Origin: Obrimoposthia wandeli
Lineage: Eukaryota
Assembly (NCBI GenBank): GCA_977020255.1
Contig: CDROCS010003532.1
Coordinates: 1-64,000, forward strand
Reading direction: 5' to 3'
Length of the DNA: 64,000 nucleotides
The notes beneath the pieces were generated by a model. The model was not told the origin of the DNA. It saw only the letters and a list, made by a program, of their open reading frames with translations, and searched no databases. Both the position numbers and the translations under genes were made by a program. Below, in pieces: positions 14,308 to 64,000 of this stretch. Position 1 is the stretch's first letter, and each line of letters starts with the position of its first letter.

Positions 14308-14660
14308 CTGCACAAGATAATGATTTTTTTTCAACTTGGGGTTCGACTGTTTTCGTCGTTAGTTTATGAAGTTAAAAATTTAGTTTCAAAACGAAACCTT
14401 AGTTTTTTAATCTTACCGAGTTTTGTTCCGATTTTAGGCATGTTTACACATTCATACTAGGCATAAAAAAATTGTCTTTTAGAATTTCAGTATAATAATT
14501 ACAATTTCAATTAAACAACATACATAAAAATGGTAATGGTCATTTTACAGTTTCACAAGATTATACAATTATGATTACAATTATGGTAGCTAATTTATCG
14601 CGGTATGCGATACACAGGGTAGTTCATGATGTCACGTTCAAGTCAGAAAGTTACCTTCGG

Positions 14661-14966: not shown

Positions 14967-15026
14967 TACTGTGAGAGGGTTGATGTTGAATTTGGGCTCG
15001 ATTGAGGACTGGTGATTGTGTGATGT

Positions 15027-15326: not shown

Positions 15327-15449
15327 TCTAAATACATGATGATGATTAATTTTTACATGAGTTTTATATATTTCTACTATTTGTACAATCGCTTCTAGAT
15401 ATTTCTACATATTTCACACACTAATTTATCTACAACCTCCTCTGACTTA

Positions 15450-16841: not shown

Positions 16842-16880
16842 TTGACCTGTTTGTCTTGCGAGATCATGACGTTTCTTTTT

Positions 16881-23778: not shown

Positions 23779-24129
23779 TTAGTTTATTTGTCTGTTTGAT
23801 GTGCTATCCTTCAATCTTGGATCTTGTAAATCAATACTTATCCCTTTAAGTTGTGATAGTACATCCATTCCTAAAATTGTAGGTTCAGGACATTCTTTCA
23901 TGATTCTAACTGGTATAGTGATCGTATTACGTCCAATTATAAATGTACACGGTAATATTCCCGTCACTTTTACAGGGTCTCCATTGACCGATACCAAGAA
24001 TTCATCTGGTTCTGCCATTGTTCGTTTCTGTTCCTCTGTCAGACAATCTTCACTTACTATCGAAGCTACAGCACCTGTATCAATTAAGGCTTCTACTCTT
24101 AAATTATTTACTCTAATGATAGCTGCTGG
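23779..24129 (-). CDS. Second aspartic protease, in frame with but bounded by TGA (24130-24132) and TAA (23779-23781)
   Basis: Translating past the ORF1 TGA gives PAAIIRVNNLRVEALIDTGAVASIVS...ILGMDVL (DTG at 24073-24081). Confidence 0.85.
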   Translation of the reverse strand, partial: PAAIIRVNNLRVEALIDTGAVASIVSEDCLTEEQKRTMAEPDEFLVSVNGDPVKVTGILPCTFIIGRNTITIPVRIMKECPEPTILGMDVLSQLKGISIDLQDPRLKDSTSNRQIN

Positions 24130-27100: not shown

Positions 27101-30100
27101 CCAGGATAGTTTGTAGTACTAACAGTCATTCCGCATCGCGCTTTGTTTCTCTTTTTAATAAATATCAATCCTTCTTCTATTGATGTTGCCATTAACAGTG
27201 TAGGTGTCTTTGTCATTGGAATTGGTCTTGTTTCATTGAGCAATCCTTTTCCAACTTTATTATACAGGAACCCTTCTCCATCTTTATTATACAGGAATCC
27301 TTTTATTTTATTAAAGCTAATCTCTTTCAAAAATACTAAAGAGCATTGCTTCGGATTCACGTGATACACAATTGTGGATTCACCTGTAAAACAAGATGCA
27401 TCTGTCATTTTACATTCTGGATACTTCATCATTCGTTGTGTCTTTTTATCAAAATTGGCAGTCCATGATTTTAATTCAATTTTGTAAGTTACGTCCATTA
27501 CTAACTCTGTTACTTTGGTTCCACGCACGTTTTTTGTTCCTCCGTCACAAGATCCATCAGCCCATCGTTGTCCAACTCTCGTGACTGTTTCGTATCGTCT
27601 CACTCCAATTTTTACAACAGGTTTGTAATTCTTGTCTATTTCTATTGTTCCTGTACGAAATGCGTCTTCGCAATCTCTCGGAAAAACCTTATGTGCTTTG
27701 TACGGTGTGGTAGGTGTGATTTCCGACATAAAACTTCTATGGCCACAATAGAATTCGTGATAACTTGAATGAACTGAACATTCTTTCACTTCTACTTGTA
27801 CTTTATCAACATCCTGATACACAAAGTAGTTTTCAACACCTTTAACTTCTAATTTTGACTGTTGTGATTCTGGACAGTCTTCGCTGTCAAGCAGTGAATA
27901 CTTTTGTCCCATCTTTGGTATGCTACAGTCGTATGCTATCAATCCTGATGCCTGTTGCATTCCCATGAACATTACTAACATCATCATCATCATTGTTGTG
28001 GACATATTTGGTTGATTGTTTCTTTCTTTTGGACGGTATTGTTTATTTTCTCTTTGACGATTCTCATGACATTGTTCGTCATCGTCTTCGTTCATTTCCA
28101 CAATGGTTTTAGCGTAGTCACTTAATTTTGCCCAACCTCCGTTTTCGTCAATTCGTCTTTGTAACACATTCTCGATCAAATACATCGCTTCATTTATTCC
28201 TTGTTTGACTTCGTGAGGTTGGCTCGTTCGTTCCGTCAATTGGAAACATAGATATGTGATTGCTGTAATTAACTTTTTATTTGTAGTCTGGCTTCCACAT
28301 AATCTCGCTAAAACTTCACCGTCATAAAATCTATCTATCGATGCATGGTATACATGATTCGCGGTCATTCTCTTTACTGCAGACATCTGTGATCTAACTG
28401 CTTTAGTCAAATTGTCTGTTATATCGGTTGTTTCATCTCTGTACATTTTGAACAACTTCGGCTTCACTTGCCTGAGAATTCCCGTAAGTATATCTTTACT
28501 ACTTGGAGCTTCTGAATTCATATCACCTCTGATATCTTCATTCCTCTCTGCACTATACTGCTCTAATGACGCTGCTAACTGTCCAATGCTTAGATGTCTC
28601 TCTTCATCAGTTTGTGGTGCAGTTAGAACATTTCGTAATATACTTCCGTCTTTTCTAGGTCTTCCAGGTCCTCTTCGAAAATACTGATACTCAGTTTGAT
28701 TCTCTCCTGGATCATACGGTTCACCATTATACTGTATCTCTTGACTTGGTCCTTCTTCATGGCCAATCTCTTCATTTTGTCGCATCATCTGCTCTGCTTG
28801 TCTATCTTTGTATGCAGCATGCCAAATTGGTGAATCTAAATCTACAATTTCGGAGATTTCGTCTTCTCCTACTAGTTGGGTTACGTTTTCGTTTTGTCTC
28901 ACTTGGTTAGCTGTATTCGCGACTTCATCTTGTCTGATTTGAATTATATCTGGTTCTGGTGGTACCTCGACCACTGGAGTTGTCAACTCATTTTCTAAAT
29001 TCATGTCTTGTAATTCTGCTACGTACGGTTCTGGTGTGGATGTCTTGTTCCAAGCTTCAGCTACATCGTTATCTCCGCTTTCGCTTGAACTGTCTAAAAT
29101 TTCTATAGGCGATTTTATCATTTCTAATGCAGTGTTTAATATCTCCGTTAATCCTTCATTATCTACTAACTCTTGACGTCCTACAGTGATGATATCAATT
29201 TTTTCTTCTAATTCGTTTCCTATCGGATATCCACACTCGACTGGTACGTCCTCATCATCTAGTGATCTCCCTTTATAATGGAACAACATATTCATTCCAT
29301 AAATTTCAAGTTTCTCGGCCAACTTTTTTCGAATAGTTTTCATTGTCTGATACACGTTAAGTTTTTCATGTATTATCTGTCCGGAAATTAATCGAAGCGA
29401 AATTTTCATCGTTCCCTTTTGGTTTGATCTCTGTACGTAACGACCATATCCTTTCAATAATCCTCGTGGTATTTCTTTGTAACCCAAGTTATCATGACTA
29501 AGTTTAACCAATTCTGCTCGCACTTCTTCCAATCTGTGCACTTTAATTGTTTGCAATTTGGCCAAAACTTCTGGAGCTTCACTCGTTTCATCTAACGGTT
29601 GATTCAACGTCTCCTTAGCTTCACTAATTATCTTTTTTACATTTTCCATACTCGTAGCATTTCTTGCTGCTTCTACATGATCAGTCATAGGTTGTGCGTT
29701 ACACGTTTTCTCTATTGGTGTCTCATACGCTTCTAGTATTTGATTCATTAAATCATTCATCTCTTCTCTCGAGTGTAGACTTTTTTCTTGTTTCGACAAC
29801 GTAGATGAATTCGCCATCTTTGTATGTGGTGAATCTTTAATTATTCCCAACATTCGTTCAAATTTACTATCACTATCTTCAAAATCTATTTCGCGTCGAA
29901 GTTCGGTCTCGCGATTCCTATCGCTGTCATCGTTTACATAACTAAAATTTCCTTTCGGTTTCGGCGAACTCTCACGACTATTCGTCTTGTCAACATTATT
30001 ATTATTATATCTACCGGAATTATTATATCTCTCAGCTCCTTGCTGTCCTACGTAATTATTGTATCTCTCAGCTCCTTGCTGTCTGTCTGCATAATTATTG

Positions 30101-31662
30101 TATCTACCTGGTGACTGTTGTCTATCTGTATACTGATTATTCGGTCTCCATGGCTGTGGAGTATATCCACCACCTCTATTCCATGGCGGAGGTGAATTAT
30201 ATCCTCTATAATTATTTCCAAAATTATTATTACCGAAATTATTATTTCCAAATCTGTTAGTTCCGAACTCCTTACTTCTCGTACAATCTCTCGAATAGTG
30301 ACCCATTTGTTTACACGTGTAACACATTATTCTCCCTCGAATATCTATCTTATTTTGTTCATCTTCGAACTGCACTCGACGACTATTCTGTCTATTATCA
30401 TAGCGTCCTCTAAAATCATTTCTTCGGAAATTCGATTCAAAACCGCTTCCTCGATTATTGAATCTTCCGTCACTACTTCCTGTATTATTCCCAAATCGAG
30501 AGTCACTTCGCTCTCCTCTGTTTGCGCTATAATTCCTATCGTCTCCTCTCCAAGGTTGGCGATTTCCTGAATTATCTCTATTAAATCTATTCCTGGAATC
30601 ATCTCTATTTCTATTCCACGAATCATTACTATTTCTACCTCTTGAATCATCTCGATTCCTGTTCCAAGACTCACTATTATTTCTACCTCTCGAATCATCT
30701 CGATTCCTACTTCGGAAATTATCTCTGTTTCCGTTACTGGATTCATCTACTTTTTCAAACTTATTTTGTCCGTAATTTCGATTCTGAAAATTACTCGGTT
30801 CTGTTTTATTCACAAATACCTTTGTCTTATCGTCGTCACCTGCAGTCATTGCGTAAATTGCCAATGCTGCGTTATTTTTTATATTTTTCTCAATCTCTCT
30901 CGCCTTTCGCAAGGCGTTATCAAAATCATTTGTATCCGATACTGCTAATAACACTTTAATATCCTTTTTCAATCCTCCTCTAAATATATCTAACAAAACT
31001 TCTGCCATTTCATTTTGGTTCCACTCATTTTCCGCTACTTGTGCTTCTTGAGCCACAAGACTACCGTCCTGATTTCTCATTATTCTTCTTGGGTACGCTC
31101 TTGCGGCCAAGGTTCTCAACACATACGCGTATTCATTCACGCCTTCGTCATGTTTCTGTTTCCGTTCTCTCATGATTCGCTTATTTACTTTTGCTAAGTC
31201 TCCCAATACTAATTTTCCAATAAAAGCATTTTCCAACGTTGGCCAGTCTAAACGTTCTGCTTCTGTCAAGTGTTTATACACTTCAAGTGCTAATCCGGTT
31301 AAGTGTGCCTGCACTCGGACACATTTTTCTTTATCGTTCCATCCTTGAACATCTGCACAACTTGAATATTCTGCGAGGAAGTCACAAATACTTTCCTCAT
31401 CTCCTTTAAACTTTGTAATCTGCAATGATCCTGAAAAGTTGGGTCTCAACGTCGCATTTAAGGCTTGTTCCAACTGTTCGGCATTCATGTCACCTACATT
31501 ATTTCCTGCATTATTATCTACTTGAGCTCCTGGGTGAGCCATATTTTCAGCTATATCCTCTTCAACTATTTCTTCAATATTATTCAATTGAAAGTCCTCA
31601 ATCACTACTGGATTGGCAATTTCAAATTCTTCTGGGTTTATGTCACCAAATAATTCAGTCAA
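24130..31662 (-). CDS. gag: 2510-aa polyprotein: Gag-CCHC, ubiquitin-like domain, AT-hook, Bcl-2-like domain, chuvirus/gB-type glycoprotein, protease 1, BIR, degenerate BIR, RING
   Basis: CYTCKQMGHYSRDC (30283-30324); Ubl-like 29175-29409; RRGPGRPRK 28651-28677; IDENGGW ~28122-28150; signal + LIAYDC 27925-28005; TM ~26230-26325; DTG 25717-25725; BIR 25015-25240; C3HC4 RING 24255-24363. The listed start is TTG; the first ATG is at 31542. Confidence 0.92.
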   Translation of the reverse strand: MTELFGDINPEEFEIANPVVIEDFQLNNIEEIVEEDIAENMAHPGAQVDNNAGNNVGDMNAEQLEQALNATLRPNFSGSLQITKFKGDEESICDFLAEYSSCADVQGWNDKEKCVRVQAHLTGLALEVYKHLTEAERLDWPTLENAFIGKLVLGDLAKVNKRIMRERKQKHDEGVNEYAYVLRTLAARAYPRRIMRNQDGSLVAQEAQVAENEWNQNEMAEVLLDIFRGGLKKDIKVLLAVSDTNDFDNALRKAREIEKNIKNNAALAIYAMTAGDDDKTKVFVNKTEPSNFQNRNYGQNKFEKVDESSNGNRDNFRSRNRDDSRGRNNSESWNRNRDDSRGRNSNDSWNRNRDDSRNRFNRDNSGNRQPWRGDDRNYSANRGERSDSRFGNNTGSSDGRFNNRGSGFESNFRRNDFRGRYDNRQNSRRVQFEDEQNKIDIRGRIMCYTCKQMGHYSRDCTRSKEFGTNRFGNNNFGNNNFGNNYRGYNSPPPWNRGGGYTPQPWRPNNQYTDRQQSPGRYNNYADRQQGAERYNNYVGQQGAERYNNSGRYNNNNVDKTNSRESSPKPKGNFSYVNDDSDRNRETELRREIDFEDSDSKFERMLGIIKDSPHTKMANSSTLSKQEKSLHSREEMNDLMNQILEAYETPIEKTCNAQPMTDHVEAARNATSMENVKKIISEAKETLNQPLDETSEAPEVLAKLQTIKVHRLEEVRAELVKLSHDNLGYKEIPRGLLKGYGRYVQRSNQKGTMKISLRLISGQIIHEKLNVYQTMKTIRKKLAEKLEIYGMNMLFHYKGRSLDDEDVPVECGYPIGNELEEKIDIITVGRQELVDNEGLTEILNTALEMIKSPIEILDSSSESGDNDVAEAWNKTSTPEPYVAELQDMNLENELTTPVVEVPPEPDIIQIRQDEVANTANQVRQNENVTQLVGEDEISEIVDLDSPIWHAAYKDRQAEQMMRQNEEIGHEEGPSQEIQYNGEPYDPGENQTEYQYFRRGPGRPRKDGSILRNVLTAPQTDEERHLSIGQLAASLEQYSAERNEDIRGDMNSEAPSSKDILTGILRQVKPKLFKMYRDETTDITDNLTKAVRSQMSAVKRMTANHVYHASIDRFYDGEVLARLCGSQTTNKKLITAITYLCFQLTERTSQPHEVKQGINEAMYLIENVLQRRIDENGGWAKLSDYAKTIVEMNEDDDEQCHENRQRENKQYRPKERNNQPNMSTTMMMMMLVMFMGMQQASGLIAYDCSIPKMGQKYSLLDSEDCPESQQSKLEVKGVENYFVYQDVDKVQVEVKECSVHSSYHEFYCGHRSFMSEITPTTPYKAHKVFPRDCEDAFRTGTIEIDKNYKPVVKIGVRRYETVTRVGQRWADGSCDGGTKNVRGTKVTELVMDVTYKIELKSWTANFDKKTQRMMKYPECKMTDASCFTGESTIVYHVNPKQCSLVFLKEISFNKIKGFLYNKDGEGFLYNKVGKGLLNETRPIPMTKTPTLLMATSIEEGLIFIKKRNKARCGMTVSTTNYPGIVLSKETIALAETKLKPRDMQLHTYFNNKIDFYYHKGLMQMEQLYRMMIERDCQLNKEIVRTKLALAITNPDMVAPLLPLDEGVFAKTMGEVLYTYKCNKVEVQLRKTDRCTSELAVTYNLQELFVEPITRIILPKDTPTKEISCSNIMASEYQMTNDLWIMLPDRKPTKTPAMIKMTNLKGKMKSEAVENMENAGLYNEKDLKAAWNEIMFPVKRARVLTEMVHRALPPGARYANFDMLLSPSHFKEAAHQTLRKMWGKFLVLGQLFSGIIGIYVIIKFVQVIIAQVLSTYSLYRITGITWQLIIGCFPFLAKYLMHHHHENELRALKKEQHQTRTMMRDPRNYRDDNDDDNDSPGVYAKIPGKPKIPLPDKEEVALNLYPMKELKEEKEKFKRGILMIRWPKVSYSEIPQAEEKDKKDNSRRILKSRISNENPNENPNAPPQVAVTLNGREYLAEVDTGSAVSVLSKEILSSKELREVCPRKQTFVNVNGTDVVSEGTLKCSLNIDGRALQLNARILTDCGSPVMIGMDVIRMFEGIIILPNNKSYKNDSSVREIKMLRGPIVEKEKYTTFRMGNSYQDKKQEALVKSILHYKNVNLGPQEMTRRKITYVNLSEKDPMRFEKKRRNILELYYSKEMARKMARTGLQMLNATNSYGSEEEVRCVWCRVEFREWENNENPMKRHKRDAPNCPFLLKLKTSNVPEIQMGKAPDFDNSDEIPKGKSALIVGRVITNSRIEDIFEVMREVNECDEQYREITFEDPRLKKLAKKGLFAIKKDGKDVIKCHKCKKERIIDRYTLELPKKILHHEFCEFCMLKNKIKQKEQKTECIIEYQITRKEILAQQDTPVVSFVRRLYPKEAERIRDLVELKIKTTRNGYGSIFELLKDKDDSTIETKEKEYINELEYVLEDPECAVCMVNKIEVAFLPCGHVRTCRRCAKEMVSCPICRRIIDRQVRNIRFHYPNKGSGPTECNNSINTIYHMGNINGAQ

Positions 31663-32026
31663 ATAAAAGCTGTCGGTTGAAACCGCTGATTGATTAACGT
31701 CTCTTTCTGATACGTTTTCTTCGACTCTAGTCTTTTCTGTTACTTTGTTATCTGTTTGGGAACCTGTTCAATTCGGTTAACTTTATTATTATTTATCTCT
31801 TCCTGGGGAATCTGACTTTGTCTTCTAGTATTATACGCGGGTCCTTTTCTATTATCCGTCGTCTTATCAATTATGTATTCGTTTACGATATCAATTTACT
31901 TATTATTTTATCTTATTTCACAATTCTTATTTTACGATTTCTTATCTCTTTAATTAGTTCGAGGACACGTCTCCCGACTTAACCTATTCAATTAATTACT
32001 TCGAGTATCAATCCACTCGATTCTCA

Positions 32027-42999: not shown

Positions 43000-45364
43000 C
43001 TATATTGTTTATATTATCATCTAAGTTTCCTTATTGAAAAATATAATGCCAGAGCTGCTGTTGATGCAATACAAAAATCTATAATGAATATTTGGATATA
43101 ATTTTATTTATTTGCGTTCGATTTCTATATTTTCTAATAACTTGTGATCTAACCAATATCTCAATATTATCTCTCGTAGTATCATTACTTTTCATTCTGA
43201 TAAAAATTTGTTTACTATTAATTTCCCAGAACAAAGTTGTCAACACAACAATCCCCTTCATTGTCAGTGTTTATTATTATTATTATTATTATTATTCATT
43301 TGAAAAAATTGATTTAAACAAGTTTGTTTATAGTTTATAGAAAAATATAACAAAATGTATATTTTCTAAAATCAATTTTACAGTATATTGATCATTTAAA
43401 TTTCTCAATACCAATATCATAATTTTACCACTGGAAAATACATTTATACATAGTGGTGTAAACCTAAAACATCTTAGTGCCGAAAAAATTTCAGGTTCAA
43501 ACATGTATTATTCTTTCATTTTCTTTGCAATTTTATAAAGAATTTTTTGTTTTTTGAGATATTGTTTGAGACTGTGATTGATTGTATGGTTTCCGATTTT
43601 AATTCCAAAGGGTAAATTTATCTCATTCAATGGTGTATGGCATCTCATAACACGACAACTTCCTAGAAACTTTTAAAATTAAAATAAAATAAAAAGCAAC
43701 CTGATGGAAAATAACAACTGTGAAATCATCCAAATTTTTCACATAATGTCTTGGCTTCCACTCATTGAATGGTAAGTGCAAAATATAATTTTCTATTCTT
43801 CCGTTATAATTTATATTTTCGAGTTTCATTAGACTAAAATTGATTTCTGTAAATTTTTCTTTTTATATGTCTGAACTTGCTATTTTATTTCTTGTCTTAA
43901 TTCTTATTTCTTTATTCTCATTTCTTGTAAATATCTTGCAAACCTATTAAAATTGGATAATTGAAATATAAAATATTTCTTCCAATCAAATTCAATGTTA
44001 ACAATGGATTCAGACCAATCAAATTCAATGGTTTAGTTATATTAACCAATTAGAATATGACTTTGCTACAAATTAGTATAAATGTATTTTCCATTCGAGA
44101 ACAAATCATTATAAATACATTCATCAAAGACAATTATGATTGATGGAAGATAGCCCACAAATACTGAGCGACGATGAAGATTTAGAAATGTTTGAAGACT
44201 CGGAAAATAATATGTATGAAGAAGTGAAACAATATTTCAAATACAAAGTAAGGTTCTTGAAGAAGGATCAACTAATTTCTTTAGTAAATCCTGTAATAAT
44301 TGAAAGAAGAAAGTTTAGTTATTAACTATCAAATATTCAAAAACCATATTTTCAATATCTTAAACAGAAAGTTGATAAAGAAGTTCCAAGATTTACTTTC
44401 AATAAGAACGAATTTTATATCCATGGAGCTTATGCAGTATTTTAAGTGATTATGGAAGAGAAATATATGTTGATGCACATCCGAAAAATATGCAATGGAT
44501 TGTAACAATTTAGCTTTTACAAGGATGAAATTAGAACAAAGCTGCCTATATGGAAAATTAAACGTGCTCATATCCTTATGTTTTGACTATTTCTTTCCTT
44601 TTTGTTATTTTATTTTTACCATGTTTCTTTTATTTGTATATTCCTGCATGTAATAAATTGTAATCAGTTTTAATTTTTTATTTCATAATATTTGTAAAGT
44701 GTTTAAATATATATATATTTTATAAACATTGTCTTTTAATTAGTTTCTTAATTTTTAGAATGAATCCTCTTCTGAGCTATGTACAAATTTTTTATTCTCC
44801 GGAAATTAACAACATCTGATCAATTTAAAAATATTTTGGAATTTTAAATACCTGGTTATGCATATGAAGGAAATCTTTTTCAGATTGAAAGTTATCCCAG
44901 TCTGGTTTTTAGAGATGACCTTGGTTATTTGATTGCTCCACTTTTAGATGAAGAAATATGGAATATTTCACTACGACTTAATGAATATTATTCTGATATC
45001 GATGAAAAAAATACAATCTCTTTGAAATTTGAGTGAAGCTAAAATGGTGTTTTACATGAGATAATTTTAATAAATGTATTTAAATTAAATTTTGTCTTAT
45101 TTTGTTTTTTTTTATCATAAAAATATATAAGTCTAACCAACATATTTTTGTCATCCTAACATGCATTAAATGTAGCCATTTATTCATACAAAATTATCAT
45201 CTAAAATTTCGTCTACAACAGGTTGATCCTGCTGTCTGAATTTATGTGGTCTCTTATAATAACTTTTTGAAGTCAATACTTGTAGGAAATTTCACTTCTC
45301 ACATACACAGTTTTAAAGAACAGACTCCTAAGGGAGTGGATTAGACCAGACACATCCACCTACT
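43000..45364 (-). mobile_element. Polinton/Maverick terminal segment A (decayed; inverted homolog of 58898-62700)
   Basis: Terminus reads AGTAGGTGGATGTGTC on minus from 45364. It carries disrupted homologs of the 158-aa, 153-aa, TBP-like and 93-aa ORFs of segment B. Confidence 0.75.
43340..43829 (-). pseudogene. TBP-like gene of Polinton A (frameshifted, 38-nt intron 43700-43663)
   Basis: MKLENINYNGR...FTVVIF|GSCRVM...FEPEIFSAL...NVFSSGKIMIL. Confidence 0.7.
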
Positions 45365-51361: not shown

Positions 51362-53825
51362 TATTTAAACCTATATCCGAATTAAATCAGTTAATGTTTA
51401 TCCAAAAACGATAATTTTACTGCAAATTTATTTCACAAAAACAAGGATTTTTTGAAATTTTCATTGGAATTGAAATTAAAATATTTGAAATAAAATAAAA
51501 TGTTATTGTATATATGTGATCATAATTTGGTGAATTTGTCCATCACTTACCGTAATATACGAGAAACACATTGACTAATCCAAGAAAGGCGAATATGCGG
51601 TTATTGAAGAAGGACAGTCGGTGGAAGCAGCTGTTCTCTCTTCCAAATGCGCTTTGTCTCTCCCCAAACCACTGACTGGATCTGGTGGACTTTGACATCA
51701 CATTGTTGTGGCTATACATTCGTTCTAGAGTTACTAACATAATTTGGCCCATTTATGTTCATTCTAAATTGGCTTCCACATTTCCAAAGTCCATGGTGTT
51801 TTCTGTGTATCAATGTCAAATTACGATAACGACAGAATTGTTACTGTCCATTACATGAAGAATAGCAATGAAAATCTTTCATTATTTGTTTGTAGAACTG
51901 TTCTAAACCCTTGATCATATGCCAATATCCTTTTTATGAAATCTACATATTGATGATTTTAAAATATTAATTTATTTCCCAATAACTTTGAAGACCATAT
52001 GTTGTTGGATGTTTGTTTTAATATTAGACAATCCGTAAAACGGCAGAATTTGAATATATCGTTCTCCACACCATCTTGGATTTAACTACACCATATACCA
52101 GAATTTTCCAACACATCATTCTTGATAATCATTTTAAATTAGGGTAGTACTAATTATTCAAAGTTATAATACTGTGTATCCTCTTTGTATCCTAAATTAT
52201 TTTCCATTATCCTTTACTACTTCTTTTTTTAATTCCTTCACATTTATACATCGATACGATCTCATTGTAATTCCTTACACAGAAGTGCATCAAAACATTA
52301 ATCTAAAATAACACTGAGACTGAAACTTTATAGCACCGAAATTATTGTAAATTGATAGATAAAATATACGCAGCAGCCATCACTGCCTTCTTGTCATTAT
52401 CCGTTACTGCCGAGCTTGATGGATAATCGAAATGCTGCTGTATTTAGAAAACATTTAATCATTCAACATATCGTTTATTAAATATATAATTATTTTATGT
52501 ATATATATAGATATATTTATTTTATATTTTAATTGCACTTCATGAAAATAATTGTTCACCCTGCTAACTATTTGGATATACTGGATGCCAACCGAAAATT
52601 TAACTGCAATTTTAATAAAACTGTAAAAAGTTCTTTTCATAAATTACAGACCATTATAAATGACCTAACGACGTTTTTTACAATTTTAATTGACTTTCAC
52701 ATATAACATATTTGGTTAGCTTCGAACTATAAATATAATTATATTTATCCAAATAGTTATTGACAACAGAAACGAATTTTGACGAAGACGAAGCTTCTAT
52801 TTCAGTCGTTGAGTTGGAAACTTTTGTTTACTTTGTCACCTTTCTTATTTAAAGATTCAAATATCAATGTTAAGTCTAAACAAACACCTTTCTAAATTGT
52901 CCTTTCATTTATGTTGGCGATTATTGACATATTGACCATATATGTAACACAAAACACCAGGCTTGTTTCTGCAACTTCTTTTCAGTGAAGCCATAAAACT
53001 ATAAATACAAAATGCAGGTCAAATTAGTTTGCCCATTGATGTAAAGTAGGTAGATGTGTCGATTCCGGCACAGTATCCCCCTACCCAGAAGAGTCATCAA
53101 TACAAAGGGCAATATGTAAACAATGTAATTGTTACGCAATGTAGTGTGTTAGCAGTGGGATGATACAAAGGACAATACGTTAACAATGTAATTGCTACGC
53201 AATGTAATGTATTAGCAGTATTAAGTGTTTATTATACATGTTTTATAGTTTAGTAATGTATTTTTTATTCTGTCTCTTAGAGTTCGGTTAAATCTTTCAA
53301 CTAGAGCAGCCTTGTATTGAGAAAAAACATTCTAATGATTTACATTATTTGATTTAAATAAAGATTTAACATATGAGTTGTACATTTTTTACCTTCATCA
53401 GTCTGTACATTTTCAGATACAACATCATTAAACATGTTTTTGACTGCTCTACTAAGTTCAACAGTTGTTTTATTTTTTTAAAGCTTGGGCTCTAGCTAGT
53501 CTATTAAACATATCTATGCAGGTTAAAATATACTTACATTCATTATTGATTGATGAATATGGTGGAATCATATCCATAAAATCCATTTGACATAATGCAT
53601 TAGGACCACTAGACTTGTATGATCTCATTGGAAATCTCTTTTTTATCGTTTTGTTGAGACTATAGGTCATCTGATTTCTCAGCCATTTCTGAGCTAACTT
53701 TTCTGTTGAGTTTGTCTTTTTTGCAAACTTTGAGACTCAATTGAATCAAACTGAATTATTTCTATCGAACCATATCGACATCGTCTTTTCCATTACAGCA
53801 TGAAGATTTCAAATTAAAATTGAAA

Positions 53826-54653
53826 TTAAGCAACTGTGATGATCTGAGATCCATTAAAAAATGAACTCCCTGGTAGTGATGCTAGTATTGGTACTAAAAC
53901 CGGAAGAATACCACCTGATTGTTTAAGAAATATTTTACGTTTACTTAAATTACTCTTTGTTTTTAAAAGACATGAAAGTGGTTGTTTATACTGCTTTAAT
54001 GCATTAGCCTTTACACCAACTTTTATTTTCTCGCTAATGATTTTAATTAATACTTTAATTATATCATATATTACAAATGTTGGAAAATACTTTAAAATTC
54101 TCATTCTACGAGCATTAGGTGTCTTCAATGGTACATTAATATATGAATATGATTTTCTTTGAAATAAAACATTGGAAATCAGTTTTATAACTTTTCTTTT
54201 CTCACGTGGTATCACAACTTTTTTAAAATACATTTTGATTAAGTTGTTAATTATTGTTTGTTTATATACAATATAGCCATCAGTATTAAATAAATCAATG
54301 GATACTCGAAAATCATCAAGACAATTTTGTGTAAAATCAATGAATAAATACCAATATGTCTTCTTTGTTGCATTATGAAACGTATCATTAAGAAAGCGTT
54401 TATTATGTGAATAAGACTGTCTAGCAATAAAATCCAAAATAGTTTGATCACGAGGATTTTTAAATAATATTAAATAATGTACATTAATATTGCGTGTTCT
54501 ATGTGCTCTTTCTTGATGAAACAGGTTTTGTGTTATAAAGAATACAGTAGCTTCCCTATGACGAGCAATTTTAGTAAACAGATTATTAAATAAAATTTCT
54601 GCACCCCATAATTTTATATTTACCTGTCTTGAATATAACAAAAGTATAGTCAA
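53826..54653 (-). pseudogene. Polinton packaging ATPase C-half fused to the small 'QxGG' protein
   Basis: NLFTKIARH...FITQNLF...LFKNPRD...IDF, then LKQSGGILPVLVP; homologous to 62738-63892; Walker A missing. Confidence 0.75.
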
Positions 54654-54989
54654 TAATTTTAATTATATGCTGTTTCGGTTTTCATGCTAACTCTAAATGA
54701 GTAAATTCTTGTAGTACATACCTTTGTAATTTATGTTTTCTAACATTGTGAACCTAAACTGAATTTGACAATCTCTATATATACAGGTGACACCCCAACA
54801 ACACTCCACATCGTCTGCAATGACACAGCAAAGTCCTTCCTCATCGGTATCATTCATATCAGCTGCCATGAAGCTGCAAAATCCATCCACATCGGCGGAG
54901 AGAGTGAAGCTGCCAAATTCTACCACATCAGGTGTATCAGAGCTGAAACTATATTCAAAAATGATTAGTAACATTTTTATATCCATATT

Positions 54990-57900
54990 ATTGTTTAGGG
55001 TTGATTCATAATAATTGTCATGCTATTATGAAACCTTACTACAAACCGAAATATAATGGTTATTGTTACTATGTATGTCCTAGTTGTAGTATATGCTCTA
55101 TTGATATGTCTGATATTTTTTATGAAAAGCACCAAGAACACTTATCTGATTTTAAAGTGAAGAAGTTAACATTTGCCCCGACTAAGAAGCCTACGCTTAA
55201 ACTTAAAATTCAAACAAACTCCCCTATACCCGCTAAGCGTATAAATCAGTTAGGTTTAGGTGTGAGGAGCGATTTAAATGATAGTCACATTGTCATAACA
55301 CAAGGTTGTTTGTTCCTGATAGGGTCAAAATACAAATTAAGAGTACTGTTGATGTAATGATAAACGCTAAAATCCAATATGGTGCCCTTGTTTTGTTTAC
55401 GAAAGATGATGGTGAAATTGTTGGGATTTCTATATGAAACTACTGTGAATTCAGATAGATCCTCTGATGGAGGCCCTAACGTGAGTTCTATAGAAGTAGG
55501 GCTTGCAGTTATTTGTGGCCTACTTAGCTTGTACTTATGTCTCACTTGTCTAATCTGAAGGTTTGTTTTTGTTTGTTGTGGTGGAGATGTGTGAATAGCT
55601 GTGTAACCGGCACTGGAAAATTCCCTTAATGTGGTGTAATGTATGGAGTACCTGGTATCTGTCTGTGCTCAAATGTTTGTTCAAGAACGTCGTTTAATTT
55701 GTAGGAAACTTTATTATTGAAACACACAATTTACGTCTCTAAAAATAACAACGACTTATCCTAACTCTACTTTACCAAACCTTACACAAATGGGGATGTC
55801 TTACGTATTGATTTTAATAAGATTTTTAAATCAAAACTCTTTTATCTCAATATGATGAAATCAAATTGTTTAAAATGGACAAACTTATTTTACTTAAACG
55901 GACACAGAATATAACTTTGAAGAAAATTAATTTATAATGTAAAGCAATTTATATGACAAAATTATAGCAACTTTAATTCAACTTACGCTCACAATATATA
56001 TGACAAAATTATAGCAACTTTAATTCAACTTCCTCTCACAATACGTATTACAAAATTATAGCAACTTTAATTCAACTTTTTCTCACAATATATATGACAA
56101 AATTATAGAAACTTTAATTCAACTTCCTCTCACAATATGTATTACAAAATTATAGCAACTTTAATTCCACTTCCCCTCATCTCTGTCCGATAGCTTGTGT
56201 GTTCCTGTAGTCCTTGCACATCCCTGGTCGACTTCTCTTGGAGTCGAGCGTTGGCAACTTCAGGAAAGTGAATAATTACATTTCCTATTGGAGCTTGTTT
56301 ACCTCAAATTCTTCTCTTGGAGTCGATCGTTGTTTTTTCAATTTAGGTTTAGGATTTCGCTTCTTTTGGCCTCTGTAGCGCTCGGATTCTATCAACGAGG
56401 CTCAATATGTTGGCTATTTCGTTTCTATTCTCTTTTATTCTCGTTCGATTACTTCTTTCTCTTGAATAGTTCCCTTTTGCGAATAACTTGCACAATCCGA
56501 TTCGTATTAATAAATAAGCAAGTGGTGGCCCAACTTCTGGAATGCAACTCTTCTTTTATAATTAAAATCTATCTTTTGTGTTGAACAACTCTTCTTTTAT
56601 AGTCCTAAATAAAACAATTAATTTGCACTTAGTTTCTAAGTGCACTCACCTTGCAGTCTGGCTACCGGCTGTTGGTTCACTATCCGTTCTTCGCTGCGAA
56701 TTTTAAACAAGCTCGTAGCGGAGCTTAAGTGGTGCTAATGGATTTTCTGTAGTCACTTTTGATTTTCGTCTTCTCTCTCTGTTGCTTCTCCAAGATTCTC
56801 TTAATTGACTGTCTGGTAATTTCTGGGCTGTTGAAATCTTCCGGCTTCTAATTAACTTCTCGTTTTTTCTTTGATTAACTCCTTATTTCCTGGGCCCTTT
56901 TAATAGATTTAATATCTATTATATACTTACACATTACACACCTGATCTCATCAAGGTCCTAAAATACTTTTAATAAAATGATATTTAATTTTAATTTATA
57001 TTCAATTTTATTTTATTTTATTTTTAACTTTGCTTTCAAGGATTCATTTTACTATTTAATCAATTAATTATTTTTTAAAGTTTATTAAATCCTAACCCTA
57101 ACAATATGAAGCAATGGCACCTTTCAAATAAATTTGTGTTGTATGATGATGATGAGTGTTTGAATGAGATATCGCAGTAATTGGATGAAAAAATTGCCAA
57201 CTACAGTGAATTGAGTAGTGAATGGCGAATTTTACGCTTATTGCAGATAAATGTTACTTTAACTAAATAAAGTAATGTAATGTATATGAGTGGTAGTAGC
57301 TATATTTCAACACCCCAAGAATTATACCAATCAAAAGCTGTCGTTAATGTACAAAACTATAACTCGCTGGGATTTTTATATAATATTCTCTCCATACAAA
57401 AACGGAATTAAATAGTTGTAAATAGACAAAGAGTTTCACAATATACTTAATATTTAGGTAATTTCAAATATAAAGCTTCTCAAATGGTGTTTTACCCTCT
57501 CTGGCGGATTTAAATACTTGTATGTTTGATGAATTGAACTTTATGTGATTATATGCTAGATTATTTAAAGTTGGATGTATACTTATTAGCTGATAATTTT
57601 GAAACATTTAGGATAAAGGAATTGTCTGATGATAGTTTACTTTTTTCAACTCCTGTTTATCTTGGGCTAGCGCCTTAAAAACATAGGATTATAAAGTATA
57701 ATTACTTAAGGATCCTGAATAGTATATATTTTTTGAAAGTGGTATACGTTTGACCTTTGTAAATAAAGATGCTGAATTATTATATATAGATGTTAATCTG
57801 TATGGATGGGCTCTTTCACAACCTTTACCACATTCCAACTTTAAATTGATTGATGATTAAGATGCCCTACTTTGTTTTTTGTGGAATTTTGATGAACAGG

Positions 57901-58410
57901 AAGAAGTGGATGACGGATATGGCTATGTATTAGAAGTTTATGTAGATATACCAGCAAATATCCATGATAAATTAGATGATCTACCTGTAGCTTCCATCAA
58001 ACAACATCCCCTAATAGTAAGCCTCACAGATGAATCTAAAATAAATTATATTATTCATTTACGATTCATCAAGTTTTAAGTTTCTCTAGGAGTACAAGAT
58101 GTTAATATTCATCGCGCAATTAGATTTAAACAAGATAGAGTTTTAAAAAAATATATTGATTTTATTACGAGGTCAGAAACAAAATGCAAATTTGAGAAAA
58201 ACCTTTATAAACTTAAAAATTGTAGCTTGTTTGGAAAAACAATAGAGAATTTAAGGAAGCTACTTAATGTGAGAATTTATAGTACGTTCAAAAAATTAAC
58301 TAGTCTAAGTTCCAAGCCAGCATTCAGGAGATCTCGTGTTGTTGCTGATGATTTAGTTGTAGTTTTGATAAATAAAGAAGTTGTTTCGCTTGAAAGATCA
58401 ATATACATTA
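54990..58410 (+). pseudogene. polB: Protein-primed B-family DNA polymerase (Polinton), split by a solo LTR
   Basis: SGSSYISTP, YIDVNLYGWALSQPLP, YVLEV and SLFGKTIENLRK motifs with many stops; coding-like sequence continues across the LTR insertion. Confidence 0.8.
55419..57103 (-). mobile_element. Solo LTR (1685 bp) of a related subfamily
   Basis: TG...CA ends; flanks AAAT/ATAT (3/4 TSD match); conserved end motifs shared with the other LTRs; internal 47-bp array at ~55950-56170. Confidence 0.8.
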
Positions 58411-58830
58411 ACTCTGCCAGTCAACTGGCGAATGGGAATTCTTCTTTCATCTCTAATAATGCGAATAATAATATCTCGTTTGTCATCACCAATTTCAATT
58501 GGTTTTCCACCACAATTGTCCATTACAGAAATACGTGCACCCATAAATATCTTTATCCAATAGTAAGCAGTGGTTTTTTGGGGGGCTTTCTTCTCCATAA
58601 ACCAGTTGCAATTTATTAACTATGTATTTCCCAATTACGTTTTTATTCAATAAATATTTGATAATTGCACGATATTCTACGATATCTGTACTAATTTTTA
58701 AAATTGCCTCCTAAAACATGTAAACAATATTAATGCATTAAAACAAACTTTGATTGTCACTACACTTCCAGTACTTTGTTTATGCAAAATATAAGATGAG
58801 TTGAATAAGTGTGAGTGCGCGAGTCCAGGA
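58405..58830 (-). mobile_element. mariner transposase N-terminal remnant
   Basis: 'EYRAIIKYL...VYGEE..P.TTAYYWIKIFMG..S..D..GKP...DERRIPIRQL' HTH region. Confidence 0.65.
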
Positions 58831-59173
58831 GGTCATTGATTGCATCACGTATATCGAGCAAGCAATTCTAGATTTATCAAAGTTGCGCATGTATCAGAGT
58901 AGGTGGATGTGTCCGGTCTAATCCACACCCCCCTCCACCCTTGTCCTTTAAAACCGTGCATGTGTGTCGAGTGAAATTTCGTGTAGGTGTGTGGAGTGAA
59001 ATTTCACTCCATACACATGCACGGTTTTAAAGGACAAGGGGGAGGGGTACCCCCCTAACAATTTTTCGCGCCTTTTGGCGCGAAGGGCTCGGGACCGACA
59101 TTGGTCACAGACTAGTAGTGCGATGTACGGATATCTCGCTCTCATATAGGTCACAGACTAGCTTGGCGATGTA

Positions 59174-59472
59174 NNNNNNNNNNNNNNNNNNNNNNNNNNN
59201 NNNNNNNNNNNNNNNNNNNNNNNNNNNNNNNNNNNNNNNNNNNNNNNNNNNNNNNNNNNNNNNNNNNNNNNNNNNNNNNNNNNNNNNNNNNNNNNNNNNN
59301 NNNNNNNNNNNNNNNNNNNNNNNNNNNNNNNNNNNNNNNNNNNNNNNNNNNNNNNNNNNNNNNNNNNNNNNNNNNNNNNNNNNNNNNNNNNNNNNNNNNN
59401 NNNNNNNNNNNNNNNNNNNNNNNNNNNNNNNNNNNNNNNNNNNNNNNNNNNNNNNNNNNNNNNNNNNNNNNN
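59174..59472. other. Assembly gap (299 N)
   Basis: Run of N. Confidence 1.
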
Positions 59473-60633
59473 CCACACCACACCACTCTTCGCCCACATA
59501 ATTTAGAGGAGCAAAAAAACAAAATACGAGACAAAATTATTTTTCAAAATATTTATTAAACATAAAACAACATATTGGCTTCACTCAAAGTCCAGAGAGG
59601 CTGCATTTTCTCGTCATCAGCAAAATATCCATTCAGACGTATTGAGATATTCCATAGTTCTTCATCTAGAATTGGAGCAATCAAATATCCTAGATCATCT
59701 TTAAAATCCAGACTGGGATCAGTTTCAAGCTCGAAACAATTTCCTTCATATACATAATCAGGAATGTAAAATCCCAAAATATTTTTCAGTTGATCAAAAT
59801 CAGTTGTTGCTAAAATTTCGATGACTCCACTTTTGATATTTTCACAGGATTCATAACTCGTATAATTTGATGCCTCTTTAATATATTACGAAATTCTTTC
59901 TGGATAATAAAAATTTGCTACACATCTTTTATCCATTCTAAAATAAGGAAACTGATTAAAAACAATGTTTATAAAAAATACACATAAGATACAAATAAGA
60001 TACAAATAAAACTGTTTATTAAATGAAAGAAACATAGTAAAACCGATTACAATTTATTACACACAAAAGTTAAAACATAGAAATATTAGGCACGTTCAAT
60101 TTTCCACATAGGCAACTTTGTTCCCATTTCATCTTTCTTGTAACCATAAAGTCGAATTGTTACAGTCCATTGCTTCTTTTTCGGAAACGCATCAATATCA
60201 ACATATCTTCCATAGTCATCTAGAAATGCTTCGGATATAAAATTCGTTCTTATTGAAAGTAAAATTTGGAACTGCCTTTTCTATTTTCTGTTTAAGATAT
60301 TGAAAATCAGTTTCCTGATAGCCGATCTAATCCACCCCCTTCCCTACTGTCCTTTAAAACCGTGCATGTGTGTGGAGTGAAATTTCAATTTACACCATAT
60401 TTGTTAAACTTTTACCATGAATCTCAAAAGTGGTTAGAGAAGACCACGAGAATCCATATTGACCCCGACGGAGACGAGATTTCAAATATTACTACTATTT
60501 TTAAGAAAGATTTTAGATTAATAAATTACACATGTTAAATATCTATGTCAGTTTTAGAATTTATCGGTCAGATTTATATAATTTAGAGAAGCAAAAACAA
60601 AATACGAGACAAAATTATTTTTCAAAATATTTA

Positions 60634-61038
60634 TTAAACATAAAACAACATATTGGCTTCACTCAAAGTCCAGAGAGGCTGCATTTTCCCGTCATCAGCA
60701 AAATATCCATTCAGACGTATTGAGATATTCCATAGTTCTTCATCTAGAATTGGAGCAATCAAATATCCTAGATCATCTTTAAAATCCAGACTGGGATCAG
60801 TTTCAAGCTCGAAACAATTTCCTTCATATACATAATCAGGAATGTAAAATCCCAAAATATTTTTCAGTTGATCAAAATCAGTTGTTGTTAAAATTTCGAT
60901 GAGATATTTTTTCTCCACTTTTGATATTTTCACAGGATTCATAACTCGTATAATTTGATGCCTCTTTAATATATTACATAGTTTTCCTTTTGAAATTCTT
61001 TCTGGATAATAAAAATTTGCTACACATCTCTTATCCAT
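60634..61038 (-). CDS. Polinton orphan ORF (~134 aa from MDKRC)
   Basis: Intact ORF; disrupted homologs at ~59556-59937 and ~44760-45060. Confidence 0.6.
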   Translation of the reverse strand: MDKRCVANFYYPERISKGKLCNILKRHQIIRVMNPVKISKVEKKYLIEILTTTDFDQLKNILGFYIPDYVYEGNCFELETDPSLDFKDDLGYLIAPILDEELWNISIRLNGYFADDGKMQPLWTLSEANMLFYV

Positions 61039-61170
61039 TCTAAAATAAGGAAACTGATTAAAAACAATGTTTATAAAAATACACATAAGATACAAATAAG
61101 ATACAAATAAAACTGTTTATTAAATGAAAGAAACATAGTAAAACCGATTACAATTTATTACACACAAAAG

Positions 61171-61647
61171 TTAAAACATAGAAATATGAGCACGTTCAAT
61201 TTTCCACATAGGCAACTTTGTTCCCATTTCATCTTTCTTGTAACCATAAAGTCGAATTGTTACAATCCATTGCTTCTTTTTCGGAAACGCATCAATATCA
61301 ACATATCTTCCATAGTCATCTAGAAATGCTTCATCGGCTCCTCGGATATAAAATTCGTTCTTATTGAAAGTAAAATTTGGAACTGCCTTTTCTATTTTCT
61401 GTTTAAGATATTGAAAATCAGGTTTTTGAATACCTGATAGATAGTAGCTGAACTTTCTTCTTTCAATTGTCACAGGATTTACTAAAGCAATCAGTTGAGC
61501 CTTCTTCAAGAATCTGACTTTGTATTTGAAATATTGTTTCACTTCTTCATACATATCCTTATCCGATTCTTCAAACATTTCTTCGTCATCGCTTAATACC
61601 CGTTGGCTATCATCCATTGTTGATAATTGTCTTTGATATGAATGCAT
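61171..61647 (-). CDS. Polinton orphan ORF (158 aa, acidic N-terminus)
   Basis: Intact ORF; homolog at 44140-44585 and partial copy at ~60080-60310. Confidence 0.65.
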   Translation of the reverse strand: MHSYQRQLSTMDDSQRVLSDDEEMFEESDKDMYEEVKQYFKYKVRFLKKAQLIALVNPVTIERRKFSYYLSGIQKPDFQYLKQKIEKAVPNFTFNKNEFYIRGADEAFLDDYGRYVDIDAFPKKKQWIVTIRLYGYKKDEMGTKLPMWKIERAHISMF

Positions 61648-61896
61648 TTACTGTGATTTGTCCTCCAATGGCGCATTCTTTTATACTAATTTCTAACAAA
61701 GACATGAATCTCATTGGTTAATATAACTAAAGCATTGAATTTGATTGGACTAAATCTATATTAAAAATCAAAATTGATTGGAAGAAATATATCATCCAAT
61801 TATAATAGGTTTGCAAGATAATTACAAGAAACGTGTAATAAAAAAGCAGGTTCAGACATATATAAAGAAGATTTTACAGAATACAATTTCAGTCTA

Positions 61897-62435
61897 ATGA
61901 AACTCGTAAATATAAATTATAAAGGTAGAACATAAGATGATGTTTCGTACTTACCATTCAATGAATGGAAGCCGAGACAATATGTAGAAAAGTTTGACAA
62001 TTTCACAGTTGTTATTTTTCCTACAGGTTAGTTTTTTATTTTATTTTCATATTGAATTCTTTAGGAAATTGTCGTGTTATGGGATGCAAAATACCAATGC
62101 TTGGGTTCAATTTACCATTTGGAATTCAAATCACTGCAATACAATCAATCACGATTTCGGCTAATCTCGGGAAACAGATAAATCTTTTTAAAACTGCAGA
62201 GAAAATGAAAGAAGAATGCATGTTTGAACCAGAAAATTTTCCTGCTCTCAGTTATTTGAAGTTTAAACCGCTATGTGTAAATATATTTTCCAATGGTAAA
62301 GTTATGATATTGGGATTGAAAAATTTTGATTATCCAGACATAGTTGATTTGATTTTAGAAAATATATCTTATTACATCTTGTTATCTTTTTTCTATAAAC
62401 AAACCCCGTTTAAACTTATTGTTTCAAATGAATAA
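61897..62435 (+). pseudogene. TBP-like gene (two-repeat core, ~166 aa when spliced; intron 62027-62064; nonsense TAA at 61933)
   Basis: FTVVIFPT|GNCRVMG and FEPENFPALSYLKFKPLCVNIFSNGKVMILG match the two TBP repeats. The TAA aligns with GAA in copy A. Confidence 0.75.
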
Positions 62436-62700
62436 TACTATAAATAGAGACAATGAAGTGGATCGGCTTGCCGATGAAATATTTTCTGGAAAAATTAGGA
62501 GTAAAGAAATTTTATCAGAATTAAAAAATAATGATATAACAAGAGATAACATTGAAATATTGGTTAGATCACACGTTATTCGAGAATTTAGAAATCGTAC
62601 ACAAATAAATAAAATTATAGCCAAATATTCATTAATTAATTTTTGTATTTCATCTACAATAGCTCTAACATTGTACATTTCAATAAGGAAACTTCTATGA
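62419..62700 (+). CDS. Polinton orphan ORF (~90 aa)
   Basis: Homolog at 43020-43261 on minus. Confidence 0.55.
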   Translation: MFQMNNTINRDNEVDRLADEIFSGKIRSKEILSELKNNDITRDNIEILVRSHVIREFRNRTQINKIIAKYSLINFCISSTIALTLYISIRKLL

Positions 62701-62737
62701 TAATATAAACAATATTAAAAATGAACGAGTATATGCA

Positions 62738-63385
62738 ATGGAGCTAAATAATAATGCTGTATTTCAAATAGTTGGCCCAAGTGGAAGTGGAAAGACACAT
62801 TTCGTCTGTAAATTGTTGCAAAATGAATCTCTTTACAAATCTAGTTTCAAAAATATTTATTAGCATCATGGTGGAGGAGGGGAAAGCGGGTTAACCAAAA
62901 CAGAAGTTTGCAAGTTGAAGGGTATAAAATTTATTGAAGGATTTGATGCAAATTGGTGTGAAAGATTGAAAAAAGAAGATGTAATAATAATTGATGATTT
63001 GTATGATGAGGCTAACAAAGAATCGGACTTTAATAATCTATTTACAAAGATTGCAAGACATCGTGAAGTTACAGTTATATTTATCACTCAAAATCTGTTT
63101 CACCAAGGAGGTCACCATAGAACAAGAAATCTTAATGTACATTACTTAGTTTTATTTAAAAATCCTAGAGATCAAACAGTTGTTGATTTTGTGGCCAGAC
63201 AGGCATTTCCTCAAAATAAGAACTTTCTAGTTGATTCATTCCACGATGCTGCTAAACAAGCACATGGGTATATATTTATTGACTTTACACAAGCTTGCCC
63301 AGATGATTTACGTGTTTTAACAGACATATTTAATTCTAAGGGAGTAACTGTTTATAAACAAATAGAGAACAATTATAAAAAATAA
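62738..63385 (+). pseudogene. Polinton A32/FtsK-like DNA packaging ATPase with one nonsense codon (TAG 62861)
   Basis: Walker A GPSGSGKT, Walker B VIIIDD, plus ARH, ITQNLF and FKNPRD motifs. Confidence 0.9.
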
Positions 63386-63562
63386 ATTCGCAATGCCTTT
63401 TACAAAGTTGATAGTAAAACGTAAAGTAAAATCTAAGAAATCAAAAAAAAGAATCATTAAGAAAAAAGAAGTGAAAAAATTAATCAAATCTGTAGTTAAA
63501 AATAAAAAAACTTAAATGGCTTCGAATATAAACAATATTTAAATTGAACCTTTTTTATTAAA

Positions 63563-63892
63563 ATGAAGAAAATACAAAGAAGCATACCCTATTTTAAAGC
63601 TTTAGTCAAAGCCTCTTCTAATAAGAGAATGATTATTCTTAAAGCATTTCCATCCTTTGTTGTAGATGATCTATTGGAAGTTTTATATAATATAGTTTTG
63701 GGTCGAGTAAAAGTTGGAAATCGGAAAAATATATTAAAGAAATATAGAAAAACTCTTCTAGATATTGCTAATGTAAAAAGTAAAAAAAGGAAACGAAATA
63801 TTATTCTTAAACAGAATGGTGGTTTCATAGGGGCTGTTATTCCAGTTGTTGCTTCAATTATCAGTAGTATTATAGCTGCGACACGTTCATAA
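63563..63892 (+). CDS. Small basic Polinton protein with C-terminal QNGGFIGAVIP motif (109 aa)
   Basis: Intact ORF downstream of the ATPase; homolog in segment C. Confidence 0.7.
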   Translation: MKKIQRSIPYFKALVKASSNKRMIILKAFPSFVVDDLLEVLYNIVLGRVKVGNRKNILKKYRKTLLDIANVKSKKRKRNIILKQNGGFIGAVIPVVASIISSIIAATRS

Positions 63893-64000
63893 ACAATTAT
63901 TTCTAAAATCAGCTAAAGATATGGGTGCTAGCCCTTCTTTACCTAAACTTAAATTTTCTTTCTATTCAAATTGTTGTAATGGAGAAGATATGGTTCAATC

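Follow-up and report, generated by a model that had tools for sequence, protein, structure and literature searches.

Among the systems described so far, the closest to the gene reported here is the viral TATA-binding protein (TBP) of beta- and gammaherpesviruses, i.e. ORF24 of KSHV and BcRF1 of EBV, which goes together with a TATT late box (PMC12529657). ORF24 is large, belongs to a viral complex of six proteins in which it makes the direct contact to Pol II, and is predicted not to fit TFIIB (PMC12529657). A second counterpart is found in the MELD viruses with an adintovirus-like PolB (Starrett et al. 2021, PMC8502044), where a TBP-like gene resides in a Polinton-related element, as it does here. 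In that work TBP is an abbreviation in the legend of Figure 5 only, in the section on non-animal data sets, and the text available to us gives no family, structure, promoter or intron, so the two can be compared by label alone. This label is also the only mention of a TBP in Polintons or Mavericks in the openly accessible literature covered (the text of PMC8502044 and of the preprint 10.1101/697771), and no passage on TATA or TBP is present in PMC10748475 and 10.64898/2026.10.13.758929. An earlier sequence-only reading of the locus had stated that no TBP is among the Polinton core genes; this has to be qualified, as the label of Starrett et al. precedes it. Finally, giant DNA viruses encode proteins with a TBP fold as well (BFVD), and these are larger and 10-20% identical to the protein discussed below.

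In the window, i.e. the whole stretch of 64,000 nucleotides of Obrimoposthia wandeli DNA that was analysed (contig CDROCS010003532.1), a Polinton carries what we read as a conserved gene for a trimmed TBP (mini-TBP), with a lineage-specific and likely spliceosomal intron and with a product that is likely the element's own late-promoter factor. Taken as a whole, we consider this reading reasonably probable. The general features that it would share with the herpesvirus system are a nuclear DNA virus, the use of host Pol II, ordinary early promoters, a minimal variant of the TATA box for late genes and a virus-encoded protein of the TBP fold whose DNA face is more polar. There are also clear differences. 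Firstly, the Polinton protein has about 150 residues and is too short for extra domains, as opposed to the large ORF24. Secondly, it has kept the TFIIB stirrup and has lost one of the four intercalating phenylalanines. BcRF1 and the mini-TBP share a distant fold similarity only (E 9e-4).

The gene and its element

The Polinton is 14.7 kb long and extends from 58898 to base 73641 of the contig, between terminal inverted repeats that are 97% alike and identical 6-bp flanks, i.e. a target duplication around the element; the location of the gene in a Polinton, as first proposed, is correct. The other genes of the element are recognised with varying clarity (Table 1). PolB matches DNA_pol_B_2 (E 4e-29), the integrase is in pieces (rve_3, E 0.003, under the cut-off, and a chromodomain, E 8e-7), and the adenovirus-type protease has a Peptidase_C5 match under the cut-off (E 0.027). 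The Pox_A32 match of the packaging ATPase exceeds the cut-off in a sister family (E 7e-6). A conserved gene of about 410 residues before the protease is the probable capsid gene, by size and gene order alone, and it has no match in Pfam, PHROG or PDB sequences. Giant DNA viruses that carry a TBP mostly bring their own RNA polymerase. The 14.7-kb element has no RNA polymerase of its own.

The immediate surroundings of the mini-TBP gene differ in two points from what had been claimed. The gene is not directly upstream of the ATPase block, as a 90-codon ORF sits in between, and of the two neighbouring ORFs called orphans, one (61171..61647) belongs to a family of 116-158 residues with relatives in 15-16 of 60 metagenome loci (e.g. 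L035:2017-2367), near the TBP gene in 15 of the 60. This ORF has no Pfam match and weak PHROG matches only.

Table 1. Features of the mini-TBP gene, its element and related copies (window positions, unless a locus is named)
Feature	Position	Strand	Remarks
Decayed gene copy of a related family	43355..43823	-	76% DNA identity over 1.8 kb
Third, deleted Polinton fragment	53263-54714 (-) and 57109-58418 (+)		mini-TBP exon-1 piece abuts second half of ATPase; decayed PolB near
Left part of Polinton	58898..64000		terminal inverted repeat at 58898; remainder beyond window: integrase with chromodomain, probable capsid genes, protease, protein-primed PolB
Left-arm ORF	60634-61116 frame	-	preceded by TATAAACA box
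TATAAACA box	61068..61075	-	before left-arm ORF
158-codon ORF, conserved mini-TBP neighbour	61171..61647	-	in this element has a TATA box of the ordinary type
Ordinary TATA box (TATAWAWR type)	61859..61867	+	38 nt before mini-TBP ATG; predicted host-read promoter
Mini-TBP exon 1	61897..62026	+	130 nt, ATG at 61897; strands of first repeat
Predicted spliceosomal intron	62027..62064	+	38 nt GT-AG, phase 1, inside Gly codon of I-F-x-x-G
Mini-TBP exon 2	62065..62435	+	last strand of repeat 1 and complete second repeat with E-P-E stirrup; stop 62433-62435
TATAAACA box	62394..62401	+	34 nt before 90-codon ORF, within mini-TBP gene end; kept in diverged copy (43332, minus strand)
90-codon ORF	62428..62700	+	between mini-TBP and ATPase; matches no known family
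TATAAACA box	62704..62711	+	34 nt before ATPase start (62738), with an out-of-frame ATG at +17; kept in diverged copy (43013, minus strand)
A32-like packaging ATPase	62738..63385	+	Pox_A32 E 0.0036; frameshifted in window copy
TATAAACA box	63527..63534	+	36 nt before basic 109-codon ORF
Basic 109-codon ORF		+	weak adenovirus core-protein-like match, under cut-off
PolB inserts of one sister family	L162:7277-7579, L164:6594-6887, L170:8951-9148, L172:7298-7499		GT start and AG end in 3/4 copies

Exon 2 matches the Pfam TBP family (PF00352) with an E-value of 8e-12 and 45.3 bits (cut-off 22.9; an intron-free family member reaches 50.4 bits), its best match among the solved TBPs of the PDB has an E-value of 7e-14, and exon 1 is matched at 44% by the contiguous homologue P0002 (tblastn). 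It had been suggested that removal of the intron restores the frame. This is not the case in the window copy, where exon 1 is still closed by an in-frame stop at codon 13 (61933-61935), and because of this premature stop we regard this copy of the gene as dead. The family is not confined to it: exon 2 occurs in at least 150 copies in the genome at 98-100% identity (a lower bound), and among metagenome loci with the gene 35 out of 60 contain another Polinton gene (23 out of 25 if loci of at least 2.5 kb are taken), in support of a family-wide presence of the gene. In the 30 top copies, picked by exon-2 score, exon 1 can be aligned in 29; the codon-13 stop is found in the window copy only, and any stop in exon 1 is found in 3 of the 29. 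The same intron donor is present in all 29 and the AG end in 27, with insert lengths of 37 to 43 nt.

A few further observations were made in the region and in the host genome. The left-arm ORFs lie in a direct duplication of about 0.8 kb (59498-60313 and 60578-61424, 95%), with a short piece resembling the terminal repeat between the copies, and a 50-bp hairpin whose arms are 90% complementary is located just inside the left terminal repeat (58931-59047). Elsewhere in the window (14641-31767, minus strand) there is a giant Burro-like gypsy element that contains a gag knuckle, a mononegavirus-type fusion glycoprotein, a protease, BIR and RING domains, RT/RNase H and an integrase fused to dual-specificity phosphatase domains; in its BIR, RING and fusion-protein domains it resembles the described Burro elements (PMC6431247), which points to a planarian as the probable host. 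A back-to-back pair of canonical TBP genes within 2 kb is present in the host genome, together with two divergent TBP paralogues that have no intron and one further split paralogue (L143/L144 = G000 C238, L145, L146, L147/L148).

Fold and DNA face of the predicted protein

A profile search collects 287 mini-TBP clusters at E <=0.001, and the best 120 of the 287 have 39-56% identity. The family alignment used below comprises 108 of these 120 clusters and one natural intron-free ORF (n=109, median length 151). The predicted model of a natural intron-free member has a pLDDT of 94 and replaced a first model made from 4 sequences (pLDDT 61). It aligns to human TBP (residues 164-336) with a Z-score of 13.8 and an rmsd of 2.5 over 147/147 residues, the next unrelated fold being at Z 6.7, in agreement with the TBP fold suggested at the outset. 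The claim that both TBP repeats are recognisable needs to be divided. The strands of both are there and the second repeat is complete, but the first repeat of the modelled family member is without its H1 and H2 helices: there is no helix of at least 4 residues before residue 82 in the model, and a 13-residue gap is positioned at H2 in the profile alignment. The full ten-stranded saddle is nevertheless predicted to be kept.

It is useful to compare the protein with cellular TBP and TRF (PF00352). The saddle fold, the complete second repeat, the E-P-E-L-F-P stirrup and three of the four phenylalanines are shared. On the other hand, the core of the mini-TBP is about 26 residues shorter, H1 and H2 of the first repeat are missing, the DNA face is rewired, there are no common intron sites, and the two groups are on separate branches. 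On cellular TBP, the helix surfaces of the first repeat are used by TFIIA, TAF1, Brf1 and Mot1. The H2 helix is noted as a contact surface in PMC3287176.

The stirrup is among the best kept parts (E96 in 104/109, P97 in 109/109, E98 in 108/109 and F100 in 109/109 sequences, corresponding to E186, P187, E188 and F190 of yeast), and it is acidic in 77 out of 77 genomic copies scored. At the equivalent position of human TBP, E286 is a TFIIB contact (PMC3287176), and judged from the alignment the TFIIB-contact stirrup appears to be conserved. Of the intercalating phenylalanines, the equivalents of F116, F190 and F207 are found in 108-109 of the 109 sequences, and F99 aligns to an invariant proline, in a loop where the alignment is weak.

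The DNA face shows a set of fixed replacements. In yeast numbering, V71 is replaced by Asn, V122 by Arg, T124 by Met, N159 by Ser, V161 by Thr and T215 mostly by Leu. In addition, I194, V203 and L205 have become near-invariant Arg, Cys and Asn, respectively, so that all three TBPm3 positions are changed. TBPm3 is an altered-specificity mutant, changed at I194, V203 and L205, that accepts G at base 2 of the box; the N-terminal repeat of TBP contacts the 3' half (PMC1636458). Arg is found at its TBPm3 position in 108 out of 109 family members; the family of the window has Ser instead in 30 out of 30 copies, and its boxes are still kept, which tempers the parallel with TBPm3.

Two promoter classes and a candidate late factor

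The sense strand of 6.6 kb of this element contains seven sites of an eight-base box, TATAAACA, where 0.38 are expected (the maximum in 60 shuffles is 3). No excess of the box was seen in the neighbouring retroelement or in host DNA, and three other TATA variants showed no enrichment in the elements. In a larger set of 16 stretches from 13 elements (68.9 kb, with borders drawn by us around the ATPase-to-protease block) the box occurs 80 times on the sense strand and once on the antisense strand. A start codon is located 30-44 nt downstream of 38 of the 80 boxes, versus 359 of 4800 random positions. There is no ORF start within 130 nt of 18 of the 80, and about 14 boxes, at 70-115 nt upstream, are part of a coding sequence, so that they could be preserved by constraint on the protein.

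The distribution of the box over the genes was studied after near-identical upstream regions had been dropped (ATPase from 18 to 14, core-like from 11 to 10, mini-TBP from 55 to 45; probable capsid 7). Within 100 nt upstream, TATAAACA is present in 11/14 ATPase, 9/10 core-like and 6/7 probable capsid genes, i.e. in 26 out of 31, and in none of the 45 mini-TBP genes; an ordinary TATA box is present in 25 out of 45 mini-TBP genes versus 5 out of the 31 others, all these regions being from related elements and not independent, so that p-values make the split look stronger than it is. There are two promoter classes, TATAAACA for the packaging and virion genes and, often, an ordinary TATA box for mini-TBP. 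This split lends indirect support to the earlier suggestion of a factor that may drive late or virion genes. As for a control Polinton that lacks the mini-TBP gene, no relative was found in viral_contigs with TBP, ATPase and probable capsid queries, and a divergent ATPase query in the genome returned only gene-carrying families (one copy is without the gene, and its family has it).

Based on these data we propose the following course of events. Early on, the mini-TBP gene would be transcribed from its ordinary TATA box by the host machinery (TBP and Pol II), and its intron would be spliced out by the spliceosome of the host. The mini-TBP would then, according to the model, be a ten-stranded saddle without the first-repeat helices, i.e. 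with the surfaces for TFIIA, TAF1, Brf1 and Mot1 gone. With its rewired DNA face it would dock on the TATAAACA boxes, which lie some 34 nt ahead of the packaging, core-like and probable capsid genes, and with its acidic stirrup it would bring in TFIIB and Pol II of the host, which would make the change from early to late expression free of TFIID control. By analogy, a two-step switch of the herpesvirus type is likely. We also note that TATAAACA might be read in the reversed orientation, since its other strand begins with TGT.

Alternatively, TATAAACA could be read by host TBP/TFIID or by a TBP paralogue, and the mini-TBP could do other work, for example that of a decoy by which TFIIB is sequestered, or transcription of the host or of early genes is dampened. 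The stirrup would be needed equally for a decoy, canonical TBPs and divergent paralogues are at hand in the genome, and host TBP might read the box because there is a crystal structure of wild-type TBP with a TATA box that has C at this position (entry 1qn3). However, it is TATAAACA and not the ordinary TATA variants that is enriched in the element, the invariant and mostly polar changes of the DNA face argue for a new sequence read-out, and C in the downstream half is disfavoured in TBPm3 selections (PMC1636458). For these reasons we find it unlikely that the host factors are the readers of the box.

It is also conceivable, even though we think it quite improbable, that the mini-TBP is a DNA-bending protein or an origin or packaging factor of the replicating linear genome, and that some unrelated factor of the host, for instance a forkhead protein, binds the box. 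Much of the outer surface of TBP is missing, and in one family the mini-TBP gene stands back to back with PolB, which would suit such a role. The TAAACA core of the box presumably resembles a forkhead site, but GTAAACA is rare in the elements (14 sites as compared to 80 of TATAAACA). The box is one-stranded (80:1) and is found at a TATA-like distance from start codons, and the residues for the TFIIB contact are among the best kept; all this speaks against replication or packaging.

The probable intron and the age of the gene

Within the preferred reading, that of an element-encoded late-promoter factor, the gene would depend on splicing in some lineages only. The 38-nt GT-AG stretch is present at the place first given for it, and a stretch of equal length is found at the same codon of the decayed minus-strand copy (43700-43663), as had been noticed from the letters. 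GT..AG inserts of unrelated sequence interrupt the same codon in the same phase in the family of the window and in three other families of the genome, and one sister family reads straight through the site, which answers the earlier suggestion to look for an uninterrupted gene. Among 88 scored loci, which include some copies counted twice, the insert is present in 49; another 32 read through, and the remaining 7 are ambiguous. Forty-eight of the 49 inserts are 35-45 nt long and one is 15 nt; the lengths fall in all three frames, and the GT..AG ends are fixed. With its GT..AG ends, a conserved coding position and uninterrupted homologues, the stretch is likely a spliceosomal intron of the U2 type, and the 38 nt would be removed from the RNA.

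The intron had been called conserved, and this is correct for the position across several families but not in general. Of the 56 metagenome loci that can be assessed, 55 read through and the remaining one carries a GT..AG insert of 40 nt at the site; this count is biased towards intron-free genes by the search patterns and the gene callers. In the metagenome element with the shared intron, another short GT..AG intron seems to be present close behind the start of the following gene (L129:822-875). No intron interrupts this codon in the TBP genes of the host, whose introns (one of 47 nt) are placed elsewhere, and cestode TBP introns, 29-45 nt long, are at other sites (PMC13134418, Table 1); a gain inside the Polinton lineage is therefore the most likely origin. 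Trees built on the ATPase (17 rows and an outgroup) and on exon 2 (24 rows) give no resolution, and they do not reject a common clade for all intron-bearers (p-AU 0.34 and 0.26, respectively); the larger exon-2 tree is a quick tree only. A single gain is thus compatible with the trees.

Introns have been described before in elements of this kind. In vertebrate Mavericks the core genes are intronless (PMC8097293), nematode Mavericks have intron-bearing cargo genes derived from the host (10.1101/2022.07.12.499685), and dinoflagellate proviruses carry introners (PMC11957031). The likeness is limited to the presence of introns inside such elements. Here, by contrast, the intron is in a conserved gene of the element itself, where it occupies a single site in families with saturated synonymous positions, and it is missing from sister lineages.

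Another insert was found in the PolB gene of one sister family (Table 1). It is 200-300 nt long, of variable length, is located in the middle of the polymerase domain and splits a Gly codon in phase 1, and the PolB of the window's family reads through the site. This is a probable intron in a core gene.

Between ten families and elements, pN of the mini-TBP gene is 0.24-0.46 and pS at least 0.63, mostly saturated, in both exons, i.e. the gene is under purifying selection. Within the window's family the two values are near-equal (pN 0.0059 vs pS 0.0077), as expected for decaying copies. It is very unlikely that the 38-nt stretch stays unspliced, as an old disabling insertion, and that the intron-bearing families rely in trans on the intron-free family, even though the latter is present alongside them in this genome. 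Among 15 of 156 contig joints, from four runs of one sample of unrecorded kind, the junction 62026/62065 does not occur, which has no bearing on splicing either way. In the insert-bearing families, both exons are under purifying selection against each other, the inserts vary in sequence and frame within a narrow range of lengths and between fixed ends, a metagenome element has its insert at this very site, and the introns of host and flatworm TBP genes are equally short (PMC13134418, Table 1).

In the tree of 51 proteins all 26 mini-TBPs are on one side of a branch with 100/100 support, apart from the host TBP, its paralogue and other cellular-type TBPs, which is the outcome of the comparison called for in the sequence-only reading; the group labels were assigned by us, and long branches meet at the base. 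Together with the spread of the family and the selection between families, this indicates an old Polinton gene and not fresh host cargo. Although intron-bearing host cargo is found in nematode Mavericks (10.1101/2022.07.12.499685), we give next to no credence to a recent capture of a host TBP or TRF gene with its intron, since this is largely excluded by the 100/100 branch and by the intron sites, which differ in both host and cestode TBPs (PMC13134418).

A virus-encoded TBP for late promoters is a known kind of protein; what is new is the presence and absence of an intron across sister families, the 0/45 versus 26/31 split of the promoters and the fixed changes that match the TBPm3 pocket. 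In a broader form of the late-factor reading, which we put forward tentatively and with somewhat less than even confidence, a large group of animal-type Polintons would run its early/late programme with one TBP of 150 residues, in which the TFIIB contact is the only one left and the DNA pocket has been re-cut at the TBPm3 residues to read TATAAACA. The protein and its box would form an orthogonal TBP-promoter pair, a master switch for the particle genes, to which the intron would add a host-splicing checkpoint in flatworm-type lineages. The finding bears on the expression of capsid and packaging genes by integrated Polintons, both on whether it takes place and on its timing. In a planarian, Polintons are reported to be de-repressed upon knock-down of PIWI (PMC8532177). 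One element-encoded promoter factor and an eight-base box provide concrete handles, i.e. predicted start sites, a target for knock-down and a binding assay, and if the late-factor reading is true, the family protein should prefer TATAAACA over TATAAAAG. The mini-TBP family also offers a test, made by nature, of what parts of TBP are enough for initiation and of how TATA specificity can be altered. Lastly, the shared intron suggests a long history of nuclear transcription of these elements by Pol II and an ability to gain host-type introns in their own genes, contrary to their usual description as intronless.
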